64,000 bases of DNA, taken from contig JAJPJJ010000088.1 of the NCBI GenBank assembly GCA_021324295.1, positions 24,902 through 88,901 on the forward strand, in the 5' to 3' direction. Shown here one piece after another: positions 10,522 through 51,383 of this stretch. Numbering within the stretch: position 1 is the stretch's first letter; each line of letters opens with the position of its first letter. Position numbers and translations under genes: made by a program. The notes under the pieces are model-generated. The model was given only the letters and a program-made list of their open reading frames with translations. It was not told the DNA's origin and did not search any database. This stretch comes from Bacillota bacterium. GTDB taxonomy: Bacteria > Sysuimicrobiota > Sysuimicrobiia > Sysuimicrobiales > Segetimicrobiaceae.

Positions 10522-10524
10522 CGC

Positions 10525-14757: not shown

Positions 14758-14765
14758 GCCGGGCG

Positions 14766-17056: not shown

Positions 17057-17091
17057 GTGCGTCGCGATGACCAGTGTGGAGGTGAACCCCC

Positions 17092-18234: not shown

Positions 18235-18328
18235 GGCTGGACTGTAGCCAAACTGTAGCCAAACGGGCAGATAACGGGCTACGGAAGCGCACGTCTGTGG
18301 ACGCCGAAACGTGGCGGAAGCCCAATAA

Positions 18329-29950: not shown

Positions 29951-30830
29951 GCCCGCGCGCGGGGCAGCAGCCGCCGCAGGTGTGGCAGGGAGGTCCGGAT
30001 GCAGGCGTCAAGCACGGCCGCAGCGGACGCGCCGGCGCTCGACGGGATCACCTCCAGGACGGCGGCGCCCGCATAGCCGACGTCCCGCAGCGCTCCGGCG
30101 ACCCGGGCACGTTCAGGTGCCCCCTGCCGAGGCCCAGGCGGTTGGTATCGGCGGCGTGTCGATGCCACAGGCGGGACCCGGCGGCGCCGGTCGCATCGCC
30201 GATGGCGCGCTCTTCGGTGTTGGCGTGGAAGAGGTCGAGCGTCATGCCGACGGCGGGTGCCCCGACGTCCTCGAGATAGGCGAGCGCCGAGGACACGGTG
30301 GTCACGAGGTAGGCCTCGTATCGGTTCAGCGGCTCGATGGCGATGCGGATGCCCAGGCGCTCGGCCTCCCGCGCCGCCGTGCGCATCCCTTCGACCGACG
30401 GGCGCCATCCCATCTCCCGCGTGGCGATCGGCGAGCGCCGGGTCTCGCCCGACGGCAGCATCTGCACGAGCGGCGCCCCGACCGCCGCGGCAAACCGCAG
30501 GCACTCTTGGACAGTCCCCGCCGCACGGTCGTGTCCGCGCTGGCGAAGCGCCACGTAGTAGTACCGGATGTGCAGGTCGTGCGCGTGGCTCCGGTGCGGG
30601 TTCGCTACATCGTGCCATGGCTGGAGCCGGCCCAGGCGTGCCTGCGGGTCGGACGCCTCGGGCGGCGTCCAGCGTCCGAAGTCGTCGACGATCCCGCACC
30701 GCTCCTCGAGCCACGCCGTCACAAGCGCCACGGCGTCGGTCTGAGAGCGCGCGAGCGCCTCGTGGACGTAGAACGAAACGTTGGGATAGTCGGGCGGCTC
30801 GAACGTGGACGTGGCGGGCAGCTCAAACGC
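29941..30830 (-). CDS. Sugar phosphate isomerase/epimerase (xylose-isomerase-like TIM barrel, IolE/ribulose-phosphate epimerase-like). Apparent frameshift near 30100 and an uncertain start.
   Basis: The 30048..30992 frame contains IRIAIEPLNRYEAYL...LDLFHANTEE...RLWHRHAADTNRLGLGRGHLN. The C-terminus continues in the 29941..30714 frame as ALRDVGYAGAAVLEV..., matching the paralog at 61910. The N-terminal 55 residues of the ORF overlap grdA and are junk. Confidence 0.5.
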
Positions 30831-31290
30831 CGCTGCCCGCCCGCGTCTGCCGCAGCGCCTCCATGATCCCGGGTTTATCGAGCACGAACTCCAGCGGCCC
30901 GATCTCCTCCTCGTACACCTCGGCGGCGATCGCCGCCTTGACCTCGTCTTCGAGGATATGGTACACGGGGAGTCCCAACGGGACTCCGGCAAGTGGTCCG
31001 GCGTAGCTGGGGTCCCCCTGCGTCAGCGTCAGCGCGACCATTCGGGTGCTGCCGGCCGTGGGCGTCCCGAGCACCACCACCATGCGGTCCCGCTGGCCCG
31101 ACTCGACCAGCCGTTGGATGGCCCCCTGCTCCTCCAGATCCATTGCCCCCGCGGACGTTCAGACGAAGCACTGCGTCGTGCTGTAGACGACCTGGCCCCC
31201 GGCGCTCACGGCGCACCGTTCGAGCGCCGGTGCCGGGATCCCATCCCGCTCCCCAAGGGCCAGGACGAGCCTACCCTTGAGCTCCACCAT
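30823..31290 (-). CDS. grdA: Glycine-reductase-complex selenoprotein A (GrdA) with an in-frame UGA (Sec) at 31159-31161.
   Basis: ATG at 31290 after GGAGGA. Translation reads [55 protein letters not shown]...VVVLGTPTAGSTRMVALTLTQGDPSYAGPLAGVPLGLPVYHILE. The CxxU motif and C-terminal block are the GrdA signature. The ORF track shows only the post-UGA part, 30823..31143. Confidence 0.8.
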
Positions 31291-32791
31291 CCGGTCCTCC
31301 TCTCTCCGCGGTGCGGAGGGTATTCCGCTCCATGAGCATGCTGATGCCGTCCCCCATCGCCGTCATGCGCCCGAGGAAGAGGCTGCCCTTGGCGACGAGC
31401 TGCACGCGGCGCAGGGCGCCGTCTGTCAGGCCAGCCACGGCGTGCGGGAGATACGGGATCGCCGAGGCGATATGCCCCTGCGTGGGCGAGTAGCCGGGCA
31501 TCCCGTGCGCCTCCGCAAACGCGGGCATCTCGCTCCGGGCGATCTCGCCGGCCTGCGCGGCCAGCGCGGCGATCACCTGATAGTTGGCCGCCGGGACGTT
31601 GCCGGAGCCTGCGGGTTCCGTGATATCGGGGTTGTGCAGCTCGACCGCGTAGCGGTCGATGTCCGACAGCCGGAGGCCGAGCGCCCGGAGGGGCTCGACC
31701 GTCAACACCCTCGCCATCTGGTGCGGCGCGGTCCCGTCGCCGACCCGGTGGACGGCTGCGGCGTCCAGCCGTAGGATCGGGCTGTGGCCGTCGTCGCGCC
31801 CCACGTCGATGGCGACGCCCGCGAGCACGTCTTCCAGCACGGGGTAGCCCGCCGCCAGGTGCCCGCGGAACTTCATGCCCAGCTTGGCGAGCGAGCCGCC
31901 CGCGACGACCACGACGCGCCGGTACCGACCGCTCGCGACCAGCGCGCCGGCCATCAGCAGCCCGTGCAGCGGCGCGGCACAAAAGGCCTTGACGTCGGCG
32001 CCGCCGGCCGTCCGCACGCCCGCGAGCTCTCCGATGGCCTTGGCGAGGTTGCCCCCGCCGCGCTGGTACCGGTCGCCGACCGCCTCCTCGCCGCATCCCA
32101 GCAGGTACTCCACCGGGTCGGGGTCGTCCACCTCGTCGAGTAGCCGGCGCAGCGCGAGCGCCCCGGTTGCCTTCGCGGCGAGGTTCTCCAGCAGCACCGT
32201 CGCGCTCAAGGCCTCGTCCTGCTCGTGGCCCGCCGCGACGGCCCCGACGGGTCGTTCGTCCTCGTGGAAGAGCGGCTCGCCGCGATCCTCCAAGGTCCGC
32301 GCGATCTGCTGCGCGCTGGCCGCCGGTATCGGGCCGGCGCCCGTCGCATCCGCGAGGCGCGCGGCGAAGTCCTCGGTGAAGCGCACGAGGTTGGCGGCAT
32401 CAGCCCGCGCGAGCCACGCGTAGAACGTCATCTGATCGACGATGGCCCCGCCGGGTCCCCGGGGGCGGGCCCCCGCGATCGGGTGGCGGTGCCAGGGCCG
32501 TGCGATCTCGCGGAGCGCCTCGGGGGCGAGGCTGCCGATCATCACCTGATGCGGAGGGTACGCCACGGCCAGCGCGAACGACCGCAGGCGGCTGCGCAGC
32601 TCGGCGCGCAGGGCGGCTCCGCCCGCCGGCAGCTCGCGCCGGGGCTTCGAGCCGGCGGCGACCAGGCCTGGGACATGCGCAAGGATGAACCGGACGCCGC
32701 GGATCACGACGCGGGCCGGCCCGCGGCCGGCGGCCGGGCCTGTGCCGGTCACCGTGTACGTCTCCGCCGGCGGGAACGGGTCAGTAGTCAT
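31271..32791 (-). CDS. GrdC-like protein (glycine reductase complex component C beta-subunit family, thiolase/FabH-like fold).
   Basis: 506 aa. The Cys-containing block FCAAPLHGLLMAGALVASGRYRRVVVVAGGSLAKLG and its position immediately upstream of grdA support the call. The match is by remembered family features only. Confidence 0.6.
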   Translation of the reverse strand: MTTDPFPPAETYTVTGTGPAAGRGPARVVIRGVRFILAHVPGLVAAGSKPRRELPAGGAALRAELRSRLRSFALAVAYPPHQVMIGSLAPEALREIARPWHRHPIAGARPRGPGGAIVDQMTFYAWLARADAANLVRFTEDFAARLADATGAGPIPAASAQQIARTLEDRGEPLFHEDERPVGAVAAGHEQDEALSATVLLENLAAKATGALALRRLLDEVDDPDPVEYLLGCGEEAVGDRYQRGGGNLAKAIGELAGVRTAGGADVKAFCAAPLHGLLMAGALVASGRYRRVVVVAGGSLAKLGMKFRGHLAAGYPVLEDVLAGVAIDVGRDDGHSPILRLDAAAVHRVGDGTAPHQMARVLTVEPLRALGLRLSDIDRYAVELHNPDITEPAGSGNVPAANYQVIAALAAQAGEIARSEMPAFAEAHGMPGYSPTQGHIASAIPYLPHAVAGLTDGALRRVQLVAKGSLFLGRMTAMGDGISMLMERNTLRTAERGGPDGGAQG

Positions 32792-34118
32792 CGTAACTCT
32801 GACAGCCCAGCCCGTAGTTGTCGAAGTGTCCGAAGATCGGCGAGTACGCCCCGGACAGGGCCTCCAGGTCCAGCGGGCCCTCCGCGGGCGTCCTGATGTC
32901 CGGCCGCTCCTGATCGAGCACCACTTCGTGGCCTCCGACGACGCGTGCCATGCGCGGCAGCGCGTCGGCCGGAGCCAGCGTCCCCGTGCTCACGATCGCG
33001 TCCGCCTCCGGAACGCTGAACAGGAGCGGGGGTTCCTCCGTCCCGGTCTCGGCCAGCGCGGGCGTCATGCGCACGACCTTGATGTCGGACTCGATCGTGA
33101 GGAAGACCGTCTTGATCCCCGCTCGCTCCAGCCCCTGGATCGTCAGCATCACCTCGATGAGGTCGTTGCCGCCGTGGTTCCACGTCACCAGCGCGCCCTG
33201 CGCAGCAAGCATCTCGGCGAGCTTCACCGTCTGGTAGGCGCTCCGCTGCTTGTCATGCAACGATCCCCACCGTGTTCGGGCGACGATCGAACCGACCCAC
33301 GCGAGGTCCGCGCCGTGACGCGCGTAGAGCGCCGGGAGCACCGGGTTGTTCACGTGGAGCCACGTGCACTTGCCGGGATAGGTCACCACCGCGTCGCCCG
33401 TGATCGCGCCGTCCAGGATCTCGTTGGGGTGGAGCAGGATCGGCAGCGCGTGCGGGGTGTACCCGTAGATCCCCGTGCCGATCCCGGGCACCATCGAGGC
33501 GTTGAGCGTGTGGACGTGGACGACCCGCGGCAGCGGCCGCTCGACCGGGGCCAGGCCGAAGCGCTGCTCGGCCGGCGCCGCCTGCCCCCGCAGCGGCGCG
33601 GCCAGGTCATCGGCCACCCGGTGCCCGGCGCCGCGCAGGGCGTCGTTCCACTCGGTCAGCTCCAGGCGGGGCTCGGTCGTCAGGGTGAGCACGAGGTACC
33701 GGAGCGTGCTGTACACGGTGACCGCGCCGGGCCCGGACATGTCGATGACGCTGTCGGTGGCGGCGCTCACGGCGCGGCGCACATGAGGCAGCGCCTCGGA
33801 CGCGATGAGGACGCCGAAGCCGCCGTAGCGGAAGGTCACGCCGTCCCCCACCGTCTCCGGCGGATGGCCGCAGACGCCGGGGTACGCGTGCCCCCGGCCG
33901 GCGACCTTGACCCGCGGCTCGATGATGTCGCGCACGTGGACGATCCGGGCGCGCTCGCCGGGCTCGACGAGGTCGACCGCGACCTCACGGATCCGCGGGT
34001 CTTCGAGCACCCGCGCGCGCACCCGCGCCGGGTCGATCACCAGGCGCCCGCCGGTCCATCCCGGCGGCGTGCCGAACGCGACGGCCTCGACCGGAAACGT
34101 GCCGAGCAGCAGCTCCAT
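32781..34118 (-). CDS. GrdE-like proprotein (substrate-binding protein B alpha/beta precursor family).
   Basis: 445 aa, from ATG at 34118 (MELLLGTFPV...). It is homologous to the N-terminal half of the adjacent GrdB-like protein. Contains GFGVLIASEALPH and YPGKCTWLHVNNP, a candidate Cys self-cleavage/pyruvoyl site. The 1160-aa ORF 32781..36263 is a false fusion. Confidence 0.65.
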   Translation of the reverse strand: MELLLGTFPVEAVAFGTPPGWTGGRLVIDPARVRARVLEDPRIREVAVDLVEPGERARIVHVRDIIEPRVKVAGRGHAYPGVCGHPPETVGDGVTFRYGGFGVLIASEALPHVRRAVSAATDSVIDMSGPGAVTVYSTLRYLVLTLTTEPRLELTEWNDALRGAGHRVADDLAAPLRGQAAPAEQRFGLAPVERPLPRVVHVHTLNASMVPGIGTGIYGYTPHALPILLHPNEILDGAITGDAVVTYPGKCTWLHVNNPVLPALYARHGADLAWVGSIVARTRWGSLHDKQRSAYQTVKLAEMLAAQGALVTWNHGGNDLIEVMLTIQGLERAGIKTVFLTIESDIKVVRMTPALAETGTEEPPLLFSVPEADAIVSTGTLAPADALPRMARVVGGHEVVLDQERPDIRTPAEGPLDLEALSGAYSPIFGHFDNYGLGCQSYDDY

Positions 34119-34126: not shown

Positions 34127-35428
34127 CTACGCTCCGTCGAACAGCGTGGGGCCCTGCACGTCGGCCGCGAGCGCGCGCAGGGCCCGCTCCACGATCCGGC
34201 GCCGGAGGGCCCGGTCCGCGGCCGGCGAGAGCGAGGGGTCCCCACAGACGTGCTCGATCTTGACGCCCGGCACCACGCGGTTGGCGCCGGCCTGCATCGC
34301 CAGCGGCGGCAGCGCGCTGATCACCGTCACCGGAACGCCCAGCCGCTCGATCTCTTTGCTCATCGTTGCGCCGCAACGATTGCAGGACCCTCAGGTCGCG
34401 ACCAACAGCGCACCGTGGGCGCCCGCCGCCTGCAGCGCCTGTGCGATCTCGGCGCCGTTGCGCTTGCAGTCCGCGAGGCGCTGATCGTTCCCGGTCGTCG
34501 TGCAGTAGAAATCCAGCAGGCGCGCGAACGCGCCCTCGCGCTCCAGCTCCCGGAGGGCGTCGAGGGGCAGCACGACGTTCGGATTGGCGCACGCCGGCTG
34601 GTTGTAGAAGCCGCCGTGCACGCATTCGAACTCCTCGGGGGAGAGCGCCGCGCGTCCGCCGAGATCGTAGCGGCACCACCGGGTCTCGCTGCACCGCTTG
34701 AGGTGGTCGGGGTTGCCTCTGGGGACGATCGCCCCTGTGGTGACGACGCCGATCGTCGCCCGCCGGAGGTCCCGGACCCCAGGAGCGGGCGGCACGGACT
34801 CGTACGCGTCGACCGGCAGTTCGGTCCGGTAGGGCCGGCCGCTCAGCTTGGCGACGAGCATCGCCACGGCTCGCTCGGCTCCGGGGCGCTCGCGCATCCC
34901 CGGCCGCCGGACGCCGCGGGGGAGGTACCCCTCGCGCTCGGCCGGACCGATCGTCGCCCCGGAGGCGAGCCTGCGTCCGAGTGCGACGATGATCGGGAGC
35001 GCCCGCGCCATGTCCGCCGCCGAGTCCCCGGTGGGAACGATATACGCCTTCCTGAACATGACGACCCCCGGGTTCTCGGGGTGCATGCCTGTGACCGCGG
35101 GCACGCCCGTCTCCGCCGCCACACGGCAGACCTCGGCGCACGCGCTGCCGTACCGGCCGGCGGCGAACGCCGGCCCGGCGACGACCAGGTCGGGACCCAC
35201 GCGCCGGAGCCACGCGCGGACGGCGGCGGCGGCGTCCTCGAGGTGCTCGTTGAAGAAGTTGTCGCCGCAGACGAGCGTCGACGTCACGGCGCCAAGGTCG
35301 CCGAGGAGCGCCTGGAGCAGGCGACCGGGGCCGACCGGGCCGTCGCGCACCGAGGGAGGGACGTGTGCCCGCTCTTCCCCTCCGATCCCGGCGAAGAACT
35401 GGTTCAGGTAGTGACCCACGCGCAGCAT
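34127..35428 (-). CDS. GrdB-family selenoprotein B (glycine/sarcosine/betaine/proline reductase family) with an in-frame UGA (Sec) at 34391-34393.
   Basis: ORFs 34391..35428 and 34127..34363 are one gene read through UGA. The sequence reads ...GALLVAT-U-GSCNRCGATMSKEIERLGVPV.... Total length is about 424 aa with Sec near residue 346, as in GrdB. A hairpin ATCGTTGCG-C-CGCAACGAT lies 11 nt after the UGA (SECIS-like). N-terminal motifs are HYLNQFFAGIGGEE and VCGDNFFNE. Confidence 0.8.
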
Positions 35429-35431: not shown

Positions 35432-36415
35432 TCAGGCCTCCGGGACCGGGACGGGCTGGCCCCCTCGGGCGATGCTCGTGTAGGCCGCGTCGAGCACGGC
35501 GATGCTGTGGAACGCATCGCGCGCGGTGACCGGCGGCGGGGCGTCGCCGAGGCACGCATCGATGAACGCCCGGTCCTCCTCGATGTACCCCCACAGGTCG
35601 AGCAGCCCCGCAGACGGGAGCCGCTGCCATTCGGCATGCGGCTGCTCGCGGGTCGCGTGCCGCACGCGGTCGAGGTCCTCCGAGACAAGGAGGGCATGGT
35701 CGCCGTAGAGCTCGACGCGCTCCTGCGGCGCGGCCCACGACGCGTGGCCGCAGGTGGTGAAGGCGACCAGCCGGTCCCCCCGGCAGCGCATCAGCATCAC
35801 GATGTCGTCGTAGTCGGGATAGCAGCTCGTCCGGCCGAGCGCCGCGACGGCCTCGATCGGGCCCACGAGCCACGCGATCATGTCCACGAGGTGGACGGCG
35901 GTATCGTACATGAAGCCGCCGGAGATCGCGGCGTTCGCGTACCAGCTCGGGGTCAGCATGTCCCCGTCGTTCATCTTCACGTTGGCGGAGAACGGGACGA
36001 AGCCGCGCTCGAGCTCCTGCCGGAGATACCGGTACGCGGGGGCCCAGCGCCGGTTGAACCCCATCTGGTAGACGCGCTCGCTCGCCGCCACGCGTTCCAC
36101 GATCCGCCGGGCGTCCCGGAGCGACGTCGCCATCGGCTTCTCCGAGAAGACGTGGAGGCCGCGGTCGAGCGCTTCGAGGACGACGGACGCGTGGTAGACG
36201 TTGGGTAGGGTGACGAAGACAGCCTCGATGCCGAGGCCCGCGAGCTCGGCCAGATCCCGGCACGGGCGCGCGCCCATGCTCGCGGCCGCCTCGCGGGCGA
36301 CCGTCTCGACCGCGTCCGCGACCCCCACGATGCTGGCGCGCGGGTCGGCCGCCAGGGCCTCCAGGTGGCGCCGGCCCATCGTCCCCGCGCCGATCACTCC
36401 GACCTTCACCGCCAT
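35432..36415 (-). CDS. Gfo/Idh/MocA family NAD(P)-dependent oxidoreductase (inositol 2-dehydrogenase-like).
   Basis: Start MAVKVGVIGAGTMGRRHLEAL... Rossmann fold. EKP motif (FSEKPMATS). Confidence 0.75.
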   Translation of the reverse strand: MAVKVGVIGAGTMGRRHLEALAADPRASIVGVADAVETVAREAAASMGARPCRDLAELAGLGIEAVFVTLPNVYHASVVLEALDRGLHVFSEKPMATSLRDARRIVERVAASERVYQMGFNRRWAPAYRYLRQELERGFVPFSANVKMNDGDMLTPSWYANAAISGGFMYDTAVHLVDMIAWLVGPIEAVAALGRTSCYPDYDDIVMLMRCRGDRLVAFTTCGHASWAAPQERVELYGDHALLVSEDLDRVRHATREQPHAEWQRLPSAGLLDLWGYIEEDRAFIDACLGDAPPPVTARDAFHSIAVLDAAYTSIARGGQPVPVPEA

Positions 36416-37569
36416 GGATCGATCACCACCTTCATCGAGTCGGGCGCGATCGAGCGCTCGACGGCCGCCCGCACCTCGTCCAGGCCATACCGGTGGGACA
36501 CGAACTCCCGCAGCGCCGGGTACTGGCGCATGTACCGCAGCATCTGCCGCATGCTCGGCCCGTAGCTCGCCGGCTCCTCGCCGCCCACGCCGAGGATGCG
36601 GACGCTCTTGGAGCAGAGGTGACGATGCGGGTTGATCGCGACATCGCCCAGGTCCGAGAAGTTGCCGGCTTCGACGAGCAGGCCCCCCGGGCGCAGCAGG
36701 TCGAGCGCCTCCGGGACCACCTGGGGCACGCCCGCGCACTCCACCACGGCGTCCGCCCCTCGCCCGTGGGTCAGGTCGCGAACGAACGCGAGACGGTCCG
36801 CCGCCGTCGTCTGCGTTGCGTTGAGCGCATGGTCGACGCCCAGGCGCCTGGCCATCGCGAGCCGGTACTCGGAGAGGTCGACGGCGACGATCGTCCCGGC
36901 GCCGAGCATACGCGCCTTCATGGCAAAGCACATCCCGAGCGGGCCGACGCCGAGAACCACGAGGGTGTCGTCCCACAGGAACGGCTCGCTGGGCACCGCC
37001 GACATCTGCTTGGCGCGGTCGAGGCCCACGGTGACGGCCATGACCTCCGTCAGGACCGCGAGATCCGGCGGCAGCTCATCGGGGACGCGCACCAGGAAAC
37101 TCCCCGGCACCACATAGAGGTACTCCGCCCAGCCGCCGAACAGATGCGGCGGGCGGGCGGCGCTCATGTTGTTGCCGTAGTCCACCATGCGTTCACAGAG
37201 ATAGTAGGGGAAGTCGTGCGTGCAGTAGTAGCACCGCCCGCAGACCACGTTGGCTCCAACCACCACCCGGTCGCCGATCTGGAGCGGCGTCCCCTCGAAG
37301 TCCACGTAGCGACCGTCGCCGCCGATCGCCGCCACCGTCCCCACGTTCTCGTGGCCCTGGATGATCGGAAACGGAATCGTGCGCGGGGAGCCGGTGCCGC
37401 CGTACTGCGTCGTGTAGCCGAGGTACGTGTGCTTGTCGGTCCCGCAGATCCCCGAGAGCTCTATCTTGACGAGGACGCTGCCCGGCCCGGGATCCGGCAT
37501 GGGATACTCGCGGACCTCGTACCGGCCCGGGGCCACCAGCGTCGCGGCGCGTACCGTGCGTCGCCCCAT
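36406..37569 (-). CDS. Zn-dependent alcohol dehydrogenase (MDR superfamily, sorbitol/threonine-DH-like).
   Basis: Contains GICGTDKH, GHENVG and CGRCYYC (structural-Zn Cys cluster). Rossmann motif GVGPLG. Confidence 0.75.
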   Translation of the reverse strand: MGRRTVRAATLVAPGRYEVREYPMPDPGPGSVLVKIELSGICGTDKHTYLGYTTQYGGTGSPRTIPFPIIQGHENVGTVAAIGGDGRYVDFEGTPLQIGDRVVVGANVVCGRCYYCTHDFPYYLCERMVDYGNNMSAARPPHLFGGWAEYLYVVPGSFLVRVPDELPPDLAVLTEVMAVTVGLDRAKQMSAVPSEPFLWDDTLVVLGVGPLGMCFAMKARMLGAGTIVAVDLSEYRLAMARRLGVDHALNATQTTAADRLAFVRDLTHGRGADAVVECAGVPQVVPEALDLLRPGGLLVEAGNFSDLGDVAINPHRHLCSKSVRILGVGGEEPASYGPSMRQMLRYMRQYPALREFVSHRYGLDEVRAAVERSIAPDSMKVVIDPWR

Positions 37570-37631
37570 TCCGGTCGGCTGCCCTCCTGCCGTGCCCCTA
37601 CGGCTGCTGGTGCTCCCCCCGGCGGCCTGCG

Positions 37632-38759
37632 TCACGGCGCGGGGACAGCGACACGGCGGCCCTCCTCCGCCGCGGCCAGCAGCGCGTCGCACACGCGGGC
37701 ACTCGCGAGCCCGTCGGCGAACGTGGCGCCCACCATCTCGCCGCCGGCGCCGGCGGTGCGTCGGACGAACTCCTCCCATTGGTGGACGAAGGTGTGCTCC
37801 CACCCCAGGATGTGGCCCGGGGGCCACCACCGTCCGCCGAAGGGGTGGTCCCGCTCGGTGACCAGCACATCGGCCAGCCCCCGCGCGCGGCCGTCCCCGT
37901 GGTAGACCTGCAGCTCGTTGAGCCGCTCGAGGTTGAACGCCACGGTGCCGCGCTCGCCGTTCAGCTCGAACGAGAGGAAGTTCTTCCGGCCGGGGCACAT
38001 GCCGCTGGCGTCGAGGGTGCCGAGGGCCCCGCCTTCGAACTCGAGCGTGGCCACCACCGCGTCCTCCACCGTGACCGGCCGGTGCCCTCCCGGCGCGGGT
38101 CGCGTCCGGGTATACGTACGGACGGCCGCGGTCACGGCGGTGATCGGGCCGACGAGGAAGTGCGCCAGGTCGATCACGTGCGAGGCGAGATCCCCGACGA
38201 CCCCGCTCCCCGCGAGCCCCCGCTCGTGGCGCCACCCGTGCGGCGCGTCGGGGTCGAGCAGCGAATCGTCACTGTACCGGGCGCGGAAATGGTACACCCG
38301 GCCGAGCGCTCCGTCGAGAACGAGGCGACGGGCGAGGAGCACCGCCGGCACGAAGCGGTAGTTGAACCCCGTCATCGCCGCCTCGCGCGCCTCCTCGGCG
38401 GCGCGCACCATCGGCGCCGCCTCCGCCGCGGTCCGGGCGAGCGGCTTCTCGCAGAGGACCGCTCTGCCGGCGCGCAGCGCCGCGATGCTGGGCTCCGCGT
38501 GGATGTCGTTCGATCCGGCGTTGATCACGACCTCGACCTCGGAGTCGTCGAGGAGAGCCCGCCAGTCCGCGGTCCAGCGCTCCGCCCCCAGCCGCCGGGC
38601 GGCCGCTTCGGCCCGGGCCGCGTCGCGGCCGGCGATCGCGACCAGCCGGCCCACCGCGGGCGCCTCGGGGAAGGCCTCCGCGTGGCGCCGCAGGGCGGTC
38701 GCGTGGGCGCGCGCGATGCCCCCGGAGCCCAGCACGGCGACGCCGACGACCCGCGGCAC
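37632..38759 (-). CDS. Gfo/Idh/MocA family oxidoreductase (second copy).
   Basis: GTG start after AGGAGGA. Contains VAVLGSGGIARAH and CEKPLART. Confidence 0.7.
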   Translation of the reverse strand: MPRVVGVAVLGSGGIARAHATALRRHAEAFPEAPAVGRLVAIAGRDAARAEAAARRLGAERWTADWRALLDDSEVEVVINAGSNDIHAEPSIAALRAGRAVLCEKPLARTAAEAAPMVRAAEEAREAAMTGFNYRFVPAVLLARRLVLDGALGRVYHFRARYSDDSLLDPDAPHGWRHERGLAGSGVVGDLASHVIDLAHFLVGPITAVTAAVRTYTRTRPAPGGHRPVTVEDAVVATLEFEGGALGTLDASGMCPGRKNFLSFELNGERGTVAFNLERLNELQVYHGDGRARGLADVLVTERDHPFGGRWWPPGHILGWEHTFVHQWEEFVRRTAGAGGEMVGATFADGLASARVCDALLAAAEEGRRVAVPAP

Positions 38760-38767
38760 GGATCCTC

Positions 38768-40045
38768 CTACAGGAGCGCGGATGCGACCTTGCGCGTCGC
38801 GCGGACGATGTCGAACTCGTCCCGCTCGCTGAAGAGCGGGTGGAGGTCGATGTGGAGCGCGCGGCGCAGGAGGTCGTCCGTCCGCGGGAACATGCCCTTC
38901 TCGAGGCGTGCGCACCCCCTGTAGTACGGGCACTCCCACGCGCAGTGGCGTTCCGCAAACATCCGGCGCTCGATGATCTGATCGAAGTGGTGGTACACGT
39001 GCTGTCCGCTGTCCCACGCCACCGTGGCGCGGATCCCCTCGGCGGTAAGCGCTGCGCTGAAGGCGCGCGCCAGGTCCGGGGTCGGCAGGAAGAACATCAG
39101 CGTGGCGCCCGTGTCCCCGTCCGGGTCGGGCACGCGGCGGATCGTGACGCCCGGGAGCCCGCGCATCCCGTCGAGGATGGCGGTCTTGTGCGCCCGCATC
39201 CGCTCGATGATCCAGTCCATGCGGCCGAGTTGTACCAGCCCGATCGCGCCGGTGATCTCGCTCATCCGGAAGTTGATCCCGATCATCAGCTGGTTGCCGA
39301 CGGGGATCGTCTCGTCCAGCTCTTCCATGCGCACCGATCCCTGATCATGGTAACGGACGGCGCGCTCCCAGAGCGCCGGGTCGTCCGTGACCACCATGCC
39401 GCCCTCGCCCGTCGTGATGACCTTGTGGTACTGCAGGCTGTAGGCGCCGATGGCGCCGAGGGTCCCCAGGCGCCGCCCGCGGTAGCGCCCGCCGACGGCT
39501 TGGGCCGCGTCCTCGACGACGTGCAGACGGTGCCGTGCCGCCACCTCCAGGATCGGGGCCATATCGGCGCCCGCCCCGCGCATGTGCACCGGGAGGATCG
39601 CCCTCGTGCACGGCGTGATCGCGGCCTCGAGCGTCGCGGGGTCCATCGTGAGGCTGTCGTCGATGTCGACGAAGACGGGCACGGCGCCCAGGTGCACCAC
39701 GGCGTTGACCGTCGCGACCCAGGTGTACGTCGGGACGATCACCTCGTCGCCCGGCCCGACCCCGAGCGCCGCGAGCGCGGTCAGCAGCGCCGCCGTGCCG
39801 GACGTGACGCCGACGGCGTGGCGGGCGCCCATGGCCGCGGCGAACGCGCGCTCGAACTGGCTCACCTTGTGCAGCGGCCTGGGGCCGTAGTGCCGGAACA
39901 AGCTCCGGCTCTCCAGGACCTCCATGACCGCGGCCTTCTCCGCGTCGCCGATCAGCAGGCCGCCGGGATAGCCGGGGAGGAGCGGTTCGCTGCGGACCGG
40001 CGTGCCGCCGTGGATGGCCAGTCGTTCCCCCGTGCCCTGTGTCAT
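38768..40045 (-). CDS. DegT/DnrJ/EryC1/StrS-family PLP-dependent aminotransferase (scyllo-inosose/sugar aminotransferase-like).
   Basis: Start MTQGTGERLAIHGG after GGAGG. The probable PLP-lysine region includes SLQYHKVITTGEGG. The upstream part of ORF 38768..41158 is junk. Confidence 0.8.
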   Translation of the reverse strand: MTQGTGERLAIHGGTPVRSEPLLPGYPGGLLIGDAEKAAVMEVLESRSLFRHYGPRPLHKVSQFERAFAAAMGARHAVGVTSGTAALLTALAALGVGPGDEVIVPTYTWVATVNAVVHLGAVPVFVDIDDSLTMDPATLEAAITPCTRAILPVHMRGAGADMAPILEVAARHRLHVVEDAAQAVGGRYRGRRLGTLGAIGAYSLQYHKVITTGEGGMVVTDDPALWERAVRYHDQGSVRMEELDETIPVGNQLMIGINFRMSEITGAIGLVQLGRMDWIIERMRAHKTAILDGMRGLPGVTIRRVPDPDGDTGATLMFFLPTPDLARAFSAALTAEGIRATVAWDSGQHVYHHFDQIIERRMFAERHCAWECPYYRGCARLEKGMFPRTDDLLRRALHIDLHPLFSERDEFDIVRATRKVASALL

Positions 40046-41073
40046 CGCCGACCTCCGGTCGTGCCTCGTACGACGAGCTCGTTCGGCAGGACCACGATGG
40101 TGGGATTCACATCGGTCCCACGGATGAGGTCGAGGAGCATCCGGGCGGCCCGCCGGCCCATCTCCTCCTTGGCGATCCGGACGGTGGTCAGCGGAGGGTT
40201 GGTCACCGACGCCAAGTCGATGTCGTCCATCCCGACGACGGAGAGGTCTGCGGGGATCGCCAGCCCGCGCTCCCGGGCCGCCGTGATCACGCCGAGCGCG
40301 AGCAGGTCGGTGACGGCGAAGATAGCGGTCGGTGGATCGGCGAGCGACAGCAGCACGCCCGCCGCCTCGCGCGCGCGCTCCGCGTCGATCGGGATGAGCC
40401 TCTCGAGCCCCGGGTCCGGGCCGAGCCCCGCCTCCGCCAGCGCGCGCCGGTACCCGTCGTGCGTCTCCCGCCCGAACGGGTAGTCCACGGCCGCACCCAC
40501 GAAGCCGATACGGGTGTGCCCCAGCTCGGCGAGGTAGCGGGTCGCGCTGTAGGCGCCCCCCGCGTTGTCGTTGACGACCGCGGGCACCGGCCGGCCCGAG
40601 AGGTGGTTGTCCAGGAGCACGACCGGCGTCCCGGCCGCGATCGTGTCCTCCACCCACCGGGTGTCGACGACGCCGGCGACGAGCACGCCATCGATCTCGC
40701 GGGCGCTCGCCATCTCGACGAACTGTGGCAGCTGCGACGCCGAGCGGAGCGGCGGCGTGATCAGCATCCGGTAGCCCGCCTCCTCGAAGACGCCGCCGAC
40801 CCCGGTCAGGACCGCGCGGTAGAAGAGGTCCGAGAAGATGCCGGTCATGTTGGTGCCCGGCACGATGGCGACCGAGTCCGAGCGCCCCAGGATGAGGCGC
40901 CGGGCGGCGGCGTGCGGCGTGTAGCGCAGCCGCCGCGCCGCTTCCATCACGCGCCTGCGCGTCTCGTCGCTGACCCTCGCCCGGCCGTTCAGCGCCTGGG
41001 AGGCCGTCGGCACCGACACGCCGGCGAGGCGCGCCACGTCTCGGAGGCTCGTCGTCTTCGATCTCATGGGCAC
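40042..41073 (-). CDS. LacI family transcriptional regulator.
   Basis: N-terminal HTH TSLRDVARLAGVSVPTASQALNG. Periplasmic-binding-like core. Its stop abuts the aminotransferase start, so it is the first gene of the operon. Confidence 0.85.
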   Translation of the reverse strand: MPMRSKTTSLRDVARLAGVSVPTASQALNGRARVSDETRRRVMEAARRLRYTPHAAARRLILGRSDSVAIVPGTNMTGIFSDLFYRAVLTGVGGVFEEAGYRMLITPPLRSASQLPQFVEMASAREIDGVLVAGVVDTRWVEDTIAAGTPVVLLDNHLSGRPVPAVVNDNAGGAYSATRYLAELGHTRIGFVGAAVDYPFGRETHDGYRRALAEAGLGPDPGLERLIPIDAERAREAAGVLLSLADPPTAIFAVTDLLALGVITAARERGLAIPADLSVVGMDDIDLASVTNPPLTTVRIAKEEMGRRAARMLLDLIRGTDVNPTIVVLPNELVVRGTTGGRR

Positions 41074-41134: not shown

Positions 41135-41346
41135 CCCAGCGCCGTCCGCTGATAGCATGGGCGTGTGCGCTGCCGCCGCCGCGTGCGCTCCGCGACCGGG
41201 GCGCCGCGTGGGCGCCCGTCCGGCCCGATGCGCCTGCCTCCCCGTGCCCGGCGCGGCCCCATGCGATCCCCATCCGACGGAGCCGGGGATGCCGCGGTGG
41301 CGCGCGGCTCGTGCGCTGCCATCCCAGGACGCGGAGGTGCCTCACA

Positions 41347-42786
41347 GTGGCGGGCGTGATCGAGGCGGGGCGCGTGGCTGAACCTGCGCGCGAGGTACCC
41401 GTGGCGCATGTCACGGACGTGCTCGTGGTGGGAGGTGGCATCGCGGGCGTGATGGCCGCGATCGCCTCGGGCCGCAGCGGGGCGCCGACGCTGCTGGTCG
41501 AGCGCTTCGGATCCCTCGGCGGCACGGGAACCTCCGCCATGATGAACCTCTTCTACGTCCCCTACGCGGCGTCCCGGGGGCTCGTCCGGGAGCTGCTCGA
41601 TCGCCTCATCGCCCGGGGCGGGGCGATTCCGGGCGAGTTTGTGGTCTACGATCCCGAGCTGTACAAGATCACGGCGCTCGAGATGCTGGCCGAGGCGCAG
41701 GTGAAGATCCTGCTCCACACGCTGGTCAGCGACGTCGTCATGGAGGGCAAGATCCTCCGCGGCATCGTGGTCGAGAACAAGTCCGGCCGCCAGGCGATCC
41801 TGAGCCGCGTGACGGTCGACGCCACCGGCGACGCCGACGTGGCCGCGCGTGCCGGTGCCCCGTACGTCAAGGGCCGGGAGGAGGACGGCAAGATGCGCCC
41901 CATGACGTTGATCTTTCGCATGGGGGGCGTCGATGTGCGCCGGCTGGTCGAGCACGTGCGGACGCACCTCGACGACTTCTCGCCCGATCCGCTCCAGTGC
42001 ATGCTGGACCTCGAGCATCATATGGTCCGCATCTTCGGCTTCTTCAAGCTGGTGGAGGAGGCCAAGGCCCGGGGCGAGTTGTGGCCGGACTGCTACTACT
42101 TCCGCGTCGAGTCCGTGATGCCGGAGCGTGGTGTGCTCACCGTGAACGCGACACGCGTCTATGGCGTCGATGGGACGAGCGCGGAGGATCTGTCCCGCGC
42201 CGAGATCGAGACGCGGCACCAGATGATCCAGCTCGCCGCGTTCGCCCGCAAGTACATTCCGGGGTTCGAGCGCTCGTTCATTCTCGACTCCGCGAGCACG
42301 ATCGGCGTCCGAGAGACACGCCGGGTCCGCGGCGAATATGTGATGACCGAGGACGATATCCTGGCTGGGCGCCACTACGACGACGTGGTGGGAGTCGACG
42401 CCAACCAGCAGAACCCCCGCCAGCAGGGCGGTCACCCGCCGGACGGCAAGGAAGGTGGACCGCAGGACGCCGAGGCGCGGCGGCTCGTTGCCCGCATGTT
42501 CGTCTACGAGATCCCGTACCGCTGCCTGGTCCCCGCGGAGGTCGACGGCCTCCTCGTGGCCGGTCGCTGCCTGTCCGTGGATCACCACGCCGACGTCTAC
42601 ACCCGCAACCAGGGCACGGCGATGGCCTCCGGGGTCGCGGCCGGGGTGGCGGCGGCACTGGCAGCGAGGGCCGGGGTCCCACCGCGGCAGGTCGATGTGC
42701 GGGCCGTCCAGGCCAGGCTCCGGGACCTCGGGGCCGATCTCGATCTGCTGCGCCGCCTCGGGCCGTCGCCGGAGCGCCTGGCATGA
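41347..42786 (+). CDS. FAD-dependent oxidoreductase (FAD_oxidored, PF12831-like). The start is uncertain between 41347 and 41401.
   Basis: N-terminal dinucleotide fold DVLVVGGGIAGVMAAIA...LVER. Contains DATGDADVA and GVRETRRVRGEY. Confidence 0.7.
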   Translation: MAGVIEAGRVAEPAREVPVAHVTDVLVVGGGIAGVMAAIASGRSGAPTLLVERFGSLGGTGTSAMMNLFYVPYAASRGLVRELLDRLIARGGAIPGEFVVYDPELYKITALEMLAEAQVKILLHTLVSDVVMEGKILRGIVVENKSGRQAILSRVTVDATGDADVAARAGAPYVKGREEDGKMRPMTLIFRMGGVDVRRLVEHVRTHLDDFSPDPLQCMLDLEHHMVRIFGFFKLVEEAKARGELWPDCYYFRVESVMPERGVLTVNATRVYGVDGTSAEDLSRAEIETRHQMIQLAAFARKYIPGFERSFILDSASTIGVRETRRVRGEYVMTEDDILAGRHYDDVVGVDANQQNPRQQGGHPPDGKEGGPQDAEARRLVARMFVYEIPYRCLVPAEVDGLLVAGRCLSVDHHADVYTRNQGTAMASGVAAGVAAALAARAGVPPRQVDVRAVQARLRDLGADLDLLRRLGPSPERLA

Positions 42787-42849
42787 GTCAAACCGGCGCG
42801 GACGGCGCCCGACCTCGTGAGCGGCCGACGCGACCGTCGGGAGGCCGGC

Positions 42850-44256
42850 ATGCGCACCCGCGCTGAGGCCGACGTGGTCGTCTGCGGGGGCGGCACGGCG
42901 GGGGCGGTCGCGGCGATCGCCTCGGCGCGCACGGGAGCCCGCACGCTCCTGGTCGATCAGTATGGCCGGGTCGGCGGGATGGCGTCCGCCGGGATGTCCT
43001 TCCTGGGCGTGAGCGACGCGGGCGGCCGACGGGCGCTTGGGGGGATCGGCGCGGAGCTGTTCGAGCGGCTCGAGGCGATCGGGGCAGCGTTCGCGGATCG
43101 CCCCGACCGGCAGGTCGGCTCGGTGACGGTGGCCGACCCGCTCGCCCTGCAGCACGTGCTGCTCACGATGCTGGTGGAGGCCGGGGTCCAGTTCCTGCTG
43201 CACGCATTCTGCGCCGACGTGCTGATGGAGGGGCGACGAGTGCGCGGGATCGTCGTTGCCGACAAGGCGGGCATCGAGCTCGTGCGCGCCCGGGCGATCG
43301 TGGACGCCACAGGGGACGGCGACATCGCGGCGCGGGCTGGCGCGCGATTCGTGCTCGGCCGCGACCGCGACGGCGTCATGCAACCGGCCACCCGCATCTT
43401 CCGTATGGCCGGCGTCGACGTCGAGGCGATGTTCGCCTACCTGCGCGAGCACCCGGAGGAGATGGACGTGCCGGAGCGCTGGGACGGGTCCGGCTACACC
43501 GCCGAGGACCTGCGACATACGTCCGTCGTGATGGACGCGTTCCCGGGGCTCGTGGCGCAGGCCCGCGCCACCGGCGAGCTGACGGTGCCCCGCGATCGGA
43601 TCGGCATCGAGACCGGCCCGGTGCCCGGGGTCGTGACGATCAATGCCACGCGGGTTCATGGGGTCGACGGAACCGATCCGGAGGCGGTGAGCCGCGCCGA
43701 GATCGAGACGCAGCGACAGATGTTCGAAGTGTCCCAGTTCCTGCGCCGCCGCGTCCCGGGGTTCGAGCGCGCGTGGCTGCTCGATGCCGCCTATCAGATC
43801 GGCATCCGGGAGACGCGCCACATCCTCGGGGAGTATGTGCTGACGCTCGACGACGTGCTCGCCGGCCGCGACTTTCCGGACACGGTCGCCCGTGGGGCCT
43901 ACCCGGTGGATCTGCACGACGTCCACGCCGGGGCAGAGGTGCTGGGGCGCGCGGTGGGGGGCGGCGGGGTCACACTCCGGCGGATCGAGCGAGCGTATGG
44001 GATCCCGTTCCGGTGTCTTGTGCCCGCGGACGTCGACGGGGTCGCCGTCGCGGGCCGCGCCATCTCCGCCACCCACGAGGCCGCAGGCTCGGTGCGCGGT
44101 CAGGCGGTGTGCATGGCGACCGGACACGCCGCCGGCACGATCGCCGCGTTGAGCGCCAAGCGGGACATCGTCCCCCGCTCGCTCAGCGTGGCCTCGATCC
44201 AGCAGGTGCTCGCCGCGCAGAGGGCGATCCTCTTCGCGGGATCGGTCCCGCCGTAG
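42850..44256 (+). CDS. FAD-dependent oxidoreductase, paralog 2.
   Basis: Contains DVVVCGGGTAGAVAAIA, DATGDGDIA and GIRETRHILGEY. Confidence 0.7.
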   Translation: MRTRAEADVVVCGGGTAGAVAAIASARTGARTLLVDQYGRVGGMASAGMSFLGVSDAGGRRALGGIGAELFERLEAIGAAFADRPDRQVGSVTVADPLALQHVLLTMLVEAGVQFLLHAFCADVLMEGRRVRGIVVADKAGIELVRARAIVDATGDGDIAARAGARFVLGRDRDGVMQPATRIFRMAGVDVEAMFAYLREHPEEMDVPERWDGSGYTAEDLRHTSVVMDAFPGLVAQARATGELTVPRDRIGIETGPVPGVVTINATRVHGVDGTDPEAVSRAEIETQRQMFEVSQFLRRRVPGFERAWLLDAAYQIGIRETRHILGEYVLTLDDVLAGRDFPDTVARGAYPVDLHDVHAGAEVLGRAVGGGGVTLRRIERAYGIPFRCLVPADVDGVAVAGRAISATHEAAGSVRGQAVCMATGHAAGTIAALSAKRDIVPRSLSVASIQQVLAAQRAILFAGSVPP

Positions 44257-48008: not shown

Positions 48009-49580
48009 ATGACTGGAACACCGGAACGGAACGGCGGCCTGACCCGCCGCCGGCTTTTCCGGCTCGCCGCGGGCGCCGCGGCGGCCGGCGCTGCGCTGCC
48101 GGCCGCGGGACCGTTCGGCGAATGGGCGCTCGCCGCGGCGGCGAAGCGCGGCGGCACGCTCACGGTCGGCGTCAACACGGACCTGGTCTCGCTGGACCCC
48201 AACGACATCGTCTTCGCGAACGTGCCGATGTTCTTCCAGGTGTACAACTATCTCGTCAAGTACAGCACCACGCTGCAGCCGCGGCCCGACCTCGCGGAGT
48301 TCTGGGATCTGGCCAAGGACGGCATGAGCGTCGTGTTCCGGCTGCAGGACGGCGTCCGGACGCATTCCGGCGGAACCTTCGGCGCGGACGCACTGATCGC
48401 GAACTTCCACCGGACCAAGGCCAAGGCGACCGGCGGCGGCCTCTACAGTCGCCTCGGCGACTGGGAGGCGGCCGAGCGGGTGGACGCGCGGACCGTGCGG
48501 TTCCGGTTCTCCCATCCCCACCCCGACTACCTGGCGCAGATCGCCCGGTGGGGGATGGTCGATCCGGCGGCCTTCGCGACTGTCAAGCAGAAAGGCGGCG
48601 GGACCGGACCGTTCCGCGTCCAGGAGTGGGTGCCGGGCGACCGCGTGACGTTCGTCCGGTTCGACGGCTACTGGCAGAAGGGGCTGCCGCTGCTCGACCG
48701 CGTGGTCTGCCGCGTCTTCTCCGATCCGCAGGCGCTCGAGAACGCGTTCCAGGCCGGCACGATCGACATCGCGCACACGATCGTCAACAAGGACGTGGCG
48801 CGCCTCCGGCAGGCCGGCTTCCACGTCGAGCCGGCGCCCGTGCCGAACGAGTACTACGTCCTCACGCTCAACACCCGGCGGCCCCCGCTCGACAACATCA
48901 AGGTCCGCCAGGCGATCCAGCTGCTCGTCGACCGCGCCACGGTGTCGCGGACGGTGCTCGGCGGCGTCGCCCGGCCCATCGCGCAGATGGTGACGCCCGC
49001 CTCGCCGGGATACGATCCGCAGATTGAGACCGAGTACGCGTACAACCCCGCGAAGGCGAAGCAGCTGCTCGCCTCGGCCGGCGCCGGGCGCGGCGGACGC
49101 CTGAACTTTCTCACGTCCACGAGCACGCCGGAGCTCCCGCAGATCGCCCAGATCATCCAGGCCGACCTGCAGAAGGCGGGCCTCGACGTCGGCATCACGA
49201 TCCACGAGCCGGCCCAGTACTTCCCGGCGTACTTTGCGGGCAACTTCGACCTGAACCTCTCGTTCCTCACGCTGGCGACGATCGATCCCACGGATTTCAC
49301 GATCAGCTCGGCGTTCAGGACCGACGGAACGAACCCGTCGTGGCTCCAGACGGGGCCGCCGCCCGGGTACATCCAGGGGCTGCAGAACCTCAACGCCACG
49401 TTCAACATGCGGGAACGCTGGACGCGCCTGCGCAGCGTGATCCGGTACATCCTCGAACAGGCGTGGGCCGTGCCGGTCGCGCTGCACCTCCCGACGTACG
49501 GCCTCGGCAAGGCCGTCGAGGGGTTCGAGGTCGACCCGCAGATGCTGCTCCAACTGAGGGGGACCTGGTTGAATCGCTGA
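48009..49580 (+). CDS. ABC transporter substrate-binding protein, family 5 (Dpp/Opp-like), with a TAT signal.
   Basis: Leader RRRLFRLAAGAAAAGAALPAAG. SBP_bac_5-like length and motifs. Confidence 0.8.
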   Translation: MTGTPERNGGLTRRRLFRLAAGAAAAGAALPAAGPFGEWALAAAAKRGGTLTVGVNTDLVSLDPNDIVFANVPMFFQVYNYLVKYSTTLQPRPDLAEFWDLAKDGMSVVFRLQDGVRTHSGGTFGADALIANFHRTKAKATGGGLYSRLGDWEAAERVDARTVRFRFSHPHPDYLAQIARWGMVDPAAFATVKQKGGGTGPFRVQEWVPGDRVTFVRFDGYWQKGLPLLDRVVCRVFSDPQALENAFQAGTIDIAHTIVNKDVARLRQAGFHVEPAPVPNEYYVLTLNTRRPPLDNIKVRQAIQLLVDRATVSRTVLGGVARPIAQMVTPASPGYDPQIETEYAYNPAKAKQLLASAGAGRGGRLNFLTSTSTPELPQIAQIIQADLQKAGLDVGITIHEPAQYFPAYFAGNFDLNLSFLTLATIDPTDFTISSAFRTDGTNPSWLQTGPPPGYIQGLQNLNATFNMRERWTRLRSVIRYILEQAWAVPVALHLPTYGLGKAVEGFEVDPQMLLQLRGTWLNR

Positions 49581-49603
49581 CCCGCCGGAGGCGGTCCAGA
49601 CCG

Positions 49604-50395
49604 ATGGAACTCAGATACGAACTGATGCGGCCCCAGGAGATCGTCGCGGCGCGGACGCGCACGCCGATCGCGTACGTGCCGATCGGGCCGATGGAATGGC
49701 ACGGCCCCCACATGGCCGTCGGCATGGACATGCTGCACGCCCACACCATGGCGCTCGAGGCGGCGCGCAAGGCCGGCGGCGTCGTCCTGCCGCCCCTGCC
49801 CCTCGGCACGGAAACCTACACCGACGCCGAGCGCCTGCGCCACCGCGGGTTCGAGGGCAGCGAGCGGATCTACGGCATGGACTACCCGGGCTTCGCGCTG
49901 CCGAGCCTGTACATCGAGGAAAGCGCGTTCGCGATCATCGTGCGGGAGATCGTCCGCGGCCTGAAGCGTCAGGCCTTCAGGGTCATCGCGCTCGTGAACG
50001 GCCACGGCGCGCTCAACCACCGCAACACGCTCATGCGGGTCGCGACCGAGACGACCGAGCCGGGACGCGTGACCGTGCTGCTCGCGGGCTACCTCTACGA
50101 TGGACGGTACCGCGAGCACGCCGCGATCGGCGAGACGTCGTACCTGCTCGCTTATCATCCCGAGGCCGTCGACCTCTCGGCGCTGCCCCCGCTGCCGAAG
50201 CCGCTCGGGTACCGGGACTTCGGGGTCCTCGACCGCCAGACCGTCGTCGGGGAACCGACGCCGGATTTCACCGTCGCCCCGGAGCACGACCCGCGGCGGG
50301 CCACCCCGGAACGCGGCCGGGACGACGTGGCGTACGAGTCGGACCGGATCGCCCGGAGGGTCGCCGAGGCGCTTGCCGCGCTCCAGCCGGCGTGA
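49604..50395 (+). CDS. Creatininase-family amidohydrolase.
   Basis: Contains IGPMEWHGPHMAVGMD and LVNGHG, characteristic of the creatinine amidohydrolase family. Confidence 0.75.
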   Translation: MELRYELMRPQEIVAARTRTPIAYVPIGPMEWHGPHMAVGMDMLHAHTMALEAARKAGGVVLPPLPLGTETYTDAERLRHRGFEGSERIYGMDYPGFALPSLYIEESAFAIIVREIVRGLKRQAFRVIALVNGHGALNHRNTLMRVATETTEPGRVTVLLAGYLYDGRYREHAAIGETSYLLAYHPEAVDLSALPPLPKPLGYRDFGVLDRQTVVGEPTPDFTVAPEHDPRRATPERGRDDVAYESDRIARRVAEALAALQPA

Positions 50396-50401
50396 GCGAC
50401 G

Positions 50402-51361: not shown

Positions 51362-51383
51362 GGCGCGCCGGAGAGCCCGCGGG

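Follow-up and report, generated by a model that had tools for sequence, protein, structure and literature searches.

That GrdA and GrdB of the glycine/sarcosine/betaine reductase family are selenoproteins was recognised decades ago, and their genes are expected to contain a TGA in frame and a hairpin after it. The grdAB operon of Clostridium litorale carries two TGA codons in frame (cited in PMC13188914), and for GrdA no homologue with Cys is known, and for GrdB only very few are (Zhang et al. 2006, PMC1794560). Among the related enzymes, GrdI of betaine reductase is homologous to GrdE but is not made as a proprotein and has no pyruvoyl group, and the fluoroacetate reductase of Cloacibacillus (Synergistota) acts on a non-amine substrate with a subunit, FarE, that lacks the processing cysteines (PMC10838667). 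Here we describe a Grd-like operon in a stretch of 64,000 nucleotides (nts), hereafter the window, from contig JAJPJJ010000088.1 (positions 24,902 to 88,901; assembly GCA_021324295.1) of a bacterium deposited as Bacillota and placed by GTDB in the Sysuimicrobiota. In this operon the genes for selenoprotein B, a GrdE-like subunit, GrdC and GrdA follow each other in the order B-E-C-A on the minus strand, and the B and A genes are each interrupted by one TGA. From the sequence evidence given below, both TGAs are very likely selenocysteine (Sec) codons of an enzyme of this family, with the hairpin after the B-gene TGA serving as a selenocysteine insertion sequence (SECIS). Such recoding is already-known biology in a new organism, and the enzyme variant is the less ordinary part.

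The locus shares with the Clostridia/Tissierellia system the same two protein families, the Sec positions UxxCxxC (B) and CxxU (A), and the SECIS core CGUUGC-GGN-GCAACG after the B-gene UGA. It differs from that system in several respects: B is 44-50% identical to its counterparts, the order is B-E-C-A instead of E-A-B-C-D, GrdD, TrxA and TrxB are not found nearby, the GrdE-like subunit lacks SGN|C, the glycine motif is not matched, and the peptide after the Sec codon has Asn for Thr, which comes with two extra base pairs in the stem. A Sec-containing B protein and a non-pyruvoyl E-type partner are also features of GrdH/GrdI, and UxxCxxC is kept in the window. However, B scores 412 bits against the GrdH model (cutoff 775), no betaine transporter lies nearby, and the neighbours are sugar-/cyclitol-type dehydrogenases, an aminotransferase and an enolase-superfamily gene. 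FarB/FarE likewise combines a protein-B-type selenoenzyme with an E subunit devoid of processing cysteines, but FarB has no CxxC, which B of the window keeps, and the E subunit of the window scores 55 bits against FarE (cutoff 675). PrdB of D-proline reductase is a homologous Sec subunit (TIGR04483, 80 bits, cutoff 300), but the match is confined to the C-terminal third and no PrdA-type partner is present. As for the recoding signal, an in-coding stem-loop soon after the UGA with a small GG loop is common to the window, to the bacterial SECIS (bSECIS) consensus model (Zhang and Gladyshev 2005, as restated in PMC13188914) and to the SECIS of Escherichia coli fdhF, whereas the window hairpin has no sequence resemblance to the fdhF element and contains no bulged U. 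No account of a B-E-C-A module was found in the literature on CSP1-3/Sysuimicrobiota, Rokubacteria and Methylomirabilota, and the CSP1-3 genome paper makes no mention of grd genes or selenium.

In-frame TGA codons of the selenoprotein B and A genes

The first-pass annotation of the window had noted two separate open reading frames (ORFs), 34391..35428 and 34127..34363, as colinear and parted only by a TGA. These coordinates were verified, and translation of the minus strand from 35428 to 34127 gave one frame of 433 codons with a sole internal TGA (34393..34391) in the peptide LLVAT-U-GSCNRCGATM, which recovers the junction VAT-U-GSCNRCGATM proposed there. When the protein was compared with family profiles (U was replaced by C in the queries), it scored 408 bits against PF07355 (cutoff 22) and 466 bits against TIGR01918, 'glycine/betaine/sarcosine/D-proline family reductase selenoprotein B' (cutoff 65). 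All three features that were used to assign a protein to the selenoprotein B family are therefore present, namely a score above the profile cutoff, an in-frame UGA within U-x-x-C-x-x-C, and an adjoining PF09338 partner.

Homologues of the B gene were collected from 80 genome loci, which span Clostridia, Tissierellia, Synergistia, Chloroflexota, Nitrospinota and the closest uncultured lineages, and from 79 metagenome loci. Several of the closest loci carry the phylum label Methylomirabilota. The homologous codon was TGA in 80/80 genome loci and 79/79 metagenome loci (159/159 in total), and the surrounding motif in the genome loci was T-U-G[ST]C[NT]RCGA[TS]. The reading frame ran 84-102 codons beyond the TGA in 157/157 B loci, and tblastn alignments of the homologues extended through residues 429-433, indicating that the two halves are never separate proteins; the opposite case, which the first-pass annotation had named as one that would overturn its proposal, is thereby excluded. 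The best 120 database homologues (65-100% identity) are 340-375 residues long, nearly all of them 343-351, and this annotated length of about 345 residues indicates that gene callers end the B gene at essentially the same TGA position. No Cys-containing homologue was found among these 120 proteins or the 159 loci.

The reading frame of grdA had also been said to need a UGA, and the frame 31290..30823 indeed has one internal TGA (31161..31159) in the context QCFV-U-TSAGAMDLE. The GrdA protein scored 175 bits against NF040748 (cutoff 130) and 174 bits against PF04723; it thus exceeds the equivalog cutoff of selenoprotein A and contains C-x-x-U with an in-frame UGA. The homologous codon was TGA in 87/87 grdA copies from the fetched loci, in the context C[FY]V-U-T[AS]AGAMD. 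Both UGA codons of the operon lie at family-invariant Sec positions.

The hairpin after the B-gene TGA

A palindrome, ATCGTTGCG/CGCAACGAT, is located at 34380..34362 and is separated from the TGA by 10 nts. The first-pass annotation had correctly placed its start at the eleventh nucleotide, but had drawn it as a 9-bp stem with a single-C loop. That geometry was dropped because a one-base loop cannot form, and the central C is the base of the plus strand, the mRNA having G at this position. RNAfold predicted instead an 8-bp stem with the loop GGC at -8.6 kcal/mol, its pairs having probabilities of 0.94-0.99 when folded within 140 nts of sequence; this hairpin spans nts +14 to +32 when the U of UGA is counted as 1. 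The bSECIS thresholds are a loop of 3-9 nts, an upper stem of 4-16 bp, G in the first two loop positions, a UGA-to-loop distance of 16-37 nts and a minimum free energy of -7.5 kcal/mol or lower. The hairpin, with a loop of 3 nts starting with GG, 8 bp, a spacing of 18 nts and the energy given above, lies within all of these limits and is conserved with covariation, in agreement with the proposal that its position suits a bacterial SECIS.

Every pair of the stem is formed either by a wobble base and the first base of a codon or by two second bases. The stem contains codons that are rare in the window (AAT, 6% of Asn; CGT, 3.7% of Arg; GCA, 2.8% of Ala), and the joint probability of the rare codons, given the peptide, is 3e-5, or 7e-4 when G-U pairs are allowed. 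Among 88 unique sequences of the Asn-containing clade, the third-position entropy of the five stem codons was 0.27, 0, 0, 0 and 0 bits, whereas the loop codon had 1.57 bits and the flanking codons had about 0.8-1.7 bits. The two Cys codons of UxxCxxC differ in the same manner, and comparing them provides a built-in control for RNA-level selection: the second one (codon +6), which lies in the stem, is TGC in 151/151 unique sequences, AT-rich Clostridia included, whereas the first one (+3 after the UGA) is freely TGC or TGT, with TGT dominating there in these Clostridia.

Covariation was measured on an ungapped alignment of 82 sequences, with 500 shuffles as null. The inner five stem pairs were formed in 82/82 sequences, and double-sided changes were observed from CGU..ACG to AGA..UCU (loci L023, L025 and L027), from CGU..ACG to CGA..UCG (L072), and from AAU..AUC to AAC..GUA (L018 and L024). 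These compensatory changes affect three stem pairs, and the observed covariation score was reached by 0/500 shuffles. As a pairing control, 81.7% of cells were paired in the true alignment and 20-63% in slid alignments. The hairpin is selected at synonymous sites and covaries. CGUUGC-GGN-GCAACG, which starts 12 nts after the UGA, is thus the predicted family-wide SECIS core of selenoprotein B; in the Asn clade, the change of Thr to Asn adds two base pairs and the hairpin then starts after 10 nts.

A possible extension by a lower stem (Table 1) was rejected as an element of the family, most of its pairs being unformed in 48-72 of the 82 members, and is lineage-specific at best. For grdA, the candidate SECIS listed in Table 1 has a loop of 6 nts, a spacing of 24 nts, an energy of -5 to -6 kcal/mol and pair probabilities of 0.55 or less. 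It was 81-100% paired in 26 unique relatives with one-sided changes only, and RNAalifold on 64 and on 26 sequences gave only a trivial 2-bp helix.

Partner subunits and enzyme class

The operon may be taken for an ordinary glycine, sarcosine or betaine reductase whose GrdD and thioredoxin are encoded elsewhere and whose dehydrogenase neighbours are coincidental. GrdA and GrdC score above their equivalog cutoffs, the names of homologues at the Joint Genome Institute (JGI) include 'betaine reductase' and 'glycine reductase', a non-pyruvoyl GrdE-like subunit fits a betaine-type enzyme, and one protein A/C set often serves several protein B complexes in bacteria. We nevertheless regard this explanation as unlikely. 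In addition to that of GrdH (NF040795; see above), B falls below the equivalog cutoffs of GrdB (TIGR01917, 429 bits, cutoff 602) and GrdF (NF040794, 473 bits, cutoff 800); the GrdE-like subunit scores 166 bits against the GrdG model (cutoff 780). B also fails four of the six sub-motifs of the glycine-specific motif (Nobu et al. 2022), whereas a classical control (L041) passes the GrdB motif, and the GrdF (sarcosine) motif IHGGYDR...TTGTGT is absent. As B fails the glycine-, sarcosine- and betaine-specific tests alike, the label 'GrdB-like' of the first-pass annotation is apt.

The site of pyruvoyl formation gives a further argument against an ordinary glycine or sarcosine reductase, both of which require the pyruvoyl Cys. 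The Asn-Cys site is SGN|C (Cys at residue 242) in 49/49 classical proteins, whereas the window has TGDAV; at this position GD[AM]V is found in 54/54 close-clade proteins and GPYR in nearly all proteins of the Chloroflexota type. We infer that the GrdE-like subunit cannot form a pyruvoyl group, and, with no pyruvoyl-forming subunit, glycine, sarcosine and other primary or secondary amines are unlikely substrates.

Two Dehalococcoidia loci (L018, 10001..18059; L024, 10001..18680) contain three tandem selenoprotein-B/GrdE-like gene pairs each. Their B proteins are 47-52% identical to B of the window, the E subunits have FGDS or FDDS at the pyruvoyl site, and no GrdC or GrdA is located within +/-10 kb.

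Neighbouring genes were compared between 67 close-clade loci and 60 classical loci within +/-10 kb. GrdD, TrxA and TrxB probes, taken from a verified textbook locus (trxB-trxA-grdE-grdA-grdB-grdC-grdD), gave no tblastn match in the window. In the close clade the matches were 0/67 for GrdD, 0/67 for TrxB and 6/67 for TrxA, compared with 49/60, 35/60 and 46/60, respectively, in the classical loci. The order B-E-C-A was complete in 20 of the 25 close-clade loci that had enough downstream sequence, and the recurrent neighbours in the 67 loci were enolase-superfamily genes (23), Zn-dependent alcohol dehydrogenases (Zn-ADH, 19), creatininases (13), PF12831 oxidoreductases dependent on flavin adenine dinucleotide (FAD; 12) and GFO/IDH/MocA dehydrogenases (9). 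In the window itself, the stops and starts of the upstream operon (35432..41073, minus strand) overlap or nearly abut, and the same gene set was found in independent assemblies. The gap of 3 nts between the nearest dehydrogenase and the B gene, together with the recurrence of enolase-superfamily and Zn-ADH genes, argues for functional linkage and not for coincidence.

Judged by profiles and motifs, the predicted B-E-C-A enzyme is a divergent, non-standard member of the reductase family. We tentatively suggest a wider proposal, which is possible although we would not call it probable: B-E-C-A may represent a self-contained, previously uncharacterised selenoenzyme class without pyruvoyl, GrdD or a dedicated thioredoxin system, for which the substrate of reductive cleavage would be neither glycine nor sarcosine nor betaine, and which would not give acetyl phosphate as end product and would be widespread in uncultured high-GC soil and hot-spring bacteria (ANGP1, Fervidifonticultor and Methylomirabilota metagenome-assembled genomes, MAGs) and in Chloroflexota. 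The substrate of such a class may be a product formed by the dehydrogenase, aminotransferase and enolase-superfamily enzymes with which the module would be co-transcribed.

Decoding of the UGA codons

Several observations weigh against the reading of the operon given above, in which both UGAs specify Sec in a divergent enzyme. No selA, selB, selD or tRNA-Sec was found in the 64-kb window by ARAGORN, Rfam at the gathering threshold, Pfam/NCBIfam profiles run on the roughly 59 called genes, or motif scans for SelD and SelB. In 20 related loci, tRNA searches were negative, and a SelB-like GTPase was present only in three classical Clostridia loci. No convincing SECIS was obtained for grdA by folding, pairing counts or RNAalifold. 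The folding energy of the B-gene hairpin region did not differ significantly from shuffled sequences (z = -0.15; downstream of the UGAs, z ranged from -0.15 to -0.87 in grdB and from +1.0 to +1.2 in grdA); with 72% GC such z-scores are uninformative, and for this reason the codon-usage, entropy and covariation tests were used instead. The covariation consists of 10 cells in 3 pairs, some of them from close kin, and most stem positions are invariant. The window, with its 72% GC and a GC content at third codon positions (GC3) of 0.93, comes from a MAG; the locus has identical gene calls in several NCBI MAGs (e.g. GCA_037024555.1, GCA_037025265.1 and GCA_037025145.1) and in Logan run assemblies. 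Finally, GrdD may be encoded elsewhere in the genome, its absence holding for the window and for +/-10 kb in relatives.

The hairpin could be a by-product of self-complementary codons for the peptide C-N-R-C-G-A-T and not a functional RNA, and the near invariance of the peptide motif and the ordinary folding energy relative to shuffles speak for this. We consider it very unlikely, however, because many synonymous spellings were possible and yet three rare A/U-ending codons are used at a GC3 of 0.93. In addition, the wobble positions of the stem are frozen while those of the loop and of nearby Cys, Gly, Ser and Ile codons vary, and changes of the Arg or Thr codon are matched by changes of the partner.

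It is also highly improbable that selenium plays no part and that UGA, through suppression or a reassigned code, specifies one of the standard amino acids (Cys, Trp or Gly). Although the lack of sel genes and tRNA-Sec in the window would agree with such readthrough, TGA is the normal stop of 33 of the 58 called genes, indicating that the code is not reassigned, and the conserved hairpin of the SelB type, placed at a suitable distance, would serve no purpose. Moreover, 63 selenoprotein genes have been predicted in a MAG assigned to Methylomirabilota, a related phylum label (PMC13188914). The last alternative, a true stop that leaves a split or dead gene with a fragment of 345 residues and, at most, a second, separate protein of 78 residues from the ATG at 34363, is barely credible: gene callers annotate the TGA in this way in every assembly and a decayed paralogue lies in the same window, but the conservation of the TGA in all 159 loci and of the aligned downstream frame, the absence of frameshifts in this copy where the decayed one has several, and the standing of GrdB and GrdA as classical selenoproteins with few or no Cys forms all contradict it.

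With both UGAs read as Sec codons, translation would follow the established bacterial mechanism. SelB-GTP carrying Sec-tRNASec would bind the apical part of the B hairpin, and Sec would be inserted when the UGA enters the ribosomal A site, giving a protein of 433 residues whose active site is U-x-x-C-x-x-C. The UGA of grdA would be decoded likewise to give a C-x-x-U selenoprotein A. In the enzyme, the Sec of B would attack the alpha-carbon of the bound substrate, and the fragment would be handed on in selenoether form, first to GrdA and next to GrdC.

Gene neighbourhood and the decayed second cluster

Coordinates of the operon, of the genes upstream of it and of a second, decayed Grd-like cluster are collected in Table 1.

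Table 1. Positions in the window of the Grd-like operon, its predicted recoding elements, the upstream genes and the decayed second cluster
Feature	Position	Strand	Remarks
grdA (selenoprotein A)	30823..31290	-	155 codons including predicted Sec44; motif C-F-V-U
In-frame UGA of grdA, predicted Sec codon 44	31159..31161	-	TGA conserved in homologues
Candidate SECIS of grdA	31115..31142	-	nt +20..+23 with +44..+47 and +24..+27 with +34..+37; loop GAGGAG
GrdC (protein C beta subunit)	31271..32791	-	NF040746, 525 bits (cutoff 450)
GrdE/GrdG/GrdI-family substrate-binding partner of B	32781..34118	-	PF09338, 253 bits; start 9 nt past the B stop
Selenoprotein B gene	34127..35428	-	433 codons including predicted Sec346; motif U-G-S-C-N-R-C; one internal TGA
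In-frame UGA of the B gene, predicted Sec codon 346	34391..34393	-	TGA at the homologous codon in relatives
Predicted SECIS core hairpin	34362..34380	-	8-bp stem AUCGUUGC/GCAACGAU; apical loop GGC at 34370..34372
Possible lower-stem extension	34349..34389	-	nt +5..+12 with +35..+45; -14.2 kcal/mol predicted in the window
GFO/IDH/MocA dehydrogenase	35432..36415	-	ends 3 nt before the selenoprotein B start
Zn-dependent alcohol dehydrogenase (Zn-ADH)	36406..37569	-	upstream, same operon; Pfam/NCBIfam
GFO/IDH/MocA dehydrogenase	37632..38759	-	upstream, same operon; Pfam/NCBIfam
DegT-type aminotransferase	38768..40045	-	upstream, same operon; Pfam/NCBIfam
LacI regulator	40042..41073	-	upstream, same operon; Pfam/NCBIfam
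grdB2, decayed paralogue	53727..55060	+	frameshift near 53930; 71% identical to the intact B
In-frame TGA of grdB2	54773..54775	+	junction VAP-U-GSCNRCGATI
grdB2 hairpin	54786..54804	+	identical to the B-gene hairpin
grdE2, decayed	55057..56363	+	several frame changes
grdC2, decayed	about 56390..57835	+	frame change
grdA2 remnant	57816..57875	+	only the first 20 codons recognisable
Mutator-family transposase fragment	58424..59167	+	after the decayed cluster (53727..57959)

The frameshifts of the second cluster were considered as assembly errors, and this was rejected since the same fragmentation is present in independent assemblies from different samples. The decay is real.

Three PF12831 FAD-dependent oxidoreductase genes on the plus strand (41311..42786, 42817..44256 and 52303..53697) flank both Grd-like clusters. 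The paralogues are 42-45% identical to each other, and homologues with 74-85% identity are located beside B-E-C-A in relatives (12 of the 67 loci). These oxidoreductases may be functional partners, for example electron donors replacing thioredoxin reductase. A creatininase-family gene (49625..50395) is located within an operon for a peptide/opine-type ATP-binding cassette (ABC) transporter (48009..52259, plus strand) directly upstream of the decayed cluster, and a creatininase homologue is found near B-E-C-A in 13 of the 67 relatives, with 89% identity in one of them (L016).

Other features of the window

A c-di-GMP-I riboswitch (RF01051, 56.9 bits) is located at 13304..13397 on the minus strand, about 210 nts upstream of a Crp/Fnr-family gene (12184..13092, minus strand) with cNMP_binding and HTH_Crp_2 domains, which suggests control of this regulator by cyclic di-guanosine monophosphate (c-di-GMP). 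A 95-nt 'tRNA-Thr(GGT)' reported by ARAGORN at 12303..12397 (minus strand) was considered as a tRNA-Sec-like or allo-tRNA and rejected. Its length is abnormal for tRNA-Thr, it falls within the coding region of the Crp-family gene, and Rfam gave no match to tRNA or tRNA-Sec even at E <= 10; the call is probably a false positive.

The first 18 kb of the window (1..18931) looks like an integrated mobile element. Its genes encode a tyrosine integrase (17203..18234), an HTH_17 excisionase-like protein (16482..16724), a NERD nuclease, a two-domain AAA ATPase, a sigma-70 factor and an SLT transglycosylase, together with several ORFs without Pfam match. A luciferase-like monooxygenase gene abuts the element, and it matches profile positions 101-225 of 314 only, so that it appears to be N-terminally truncated.

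Implications

In all assemblies and database entries seen, the B and A genes are wrongly annotated as split ORFs, and the full-length selenoproteins are consequently missing from public protein sets. The SECIS core of selenoprotein B proposed here gives a compact and testable definition, supported by synonymous sites and covariation across very different GC contents. The Grd-like operons of soil-type lineages form a coherent clade, in which the pyruvoyl site, GrdD and thioredoxin genes are lacking and sugar-type dehydrogenases stand alongside. The substrate of this clade, if identified, would broaden the chemistry of the family and show that poorly known phyla depend on selenium.

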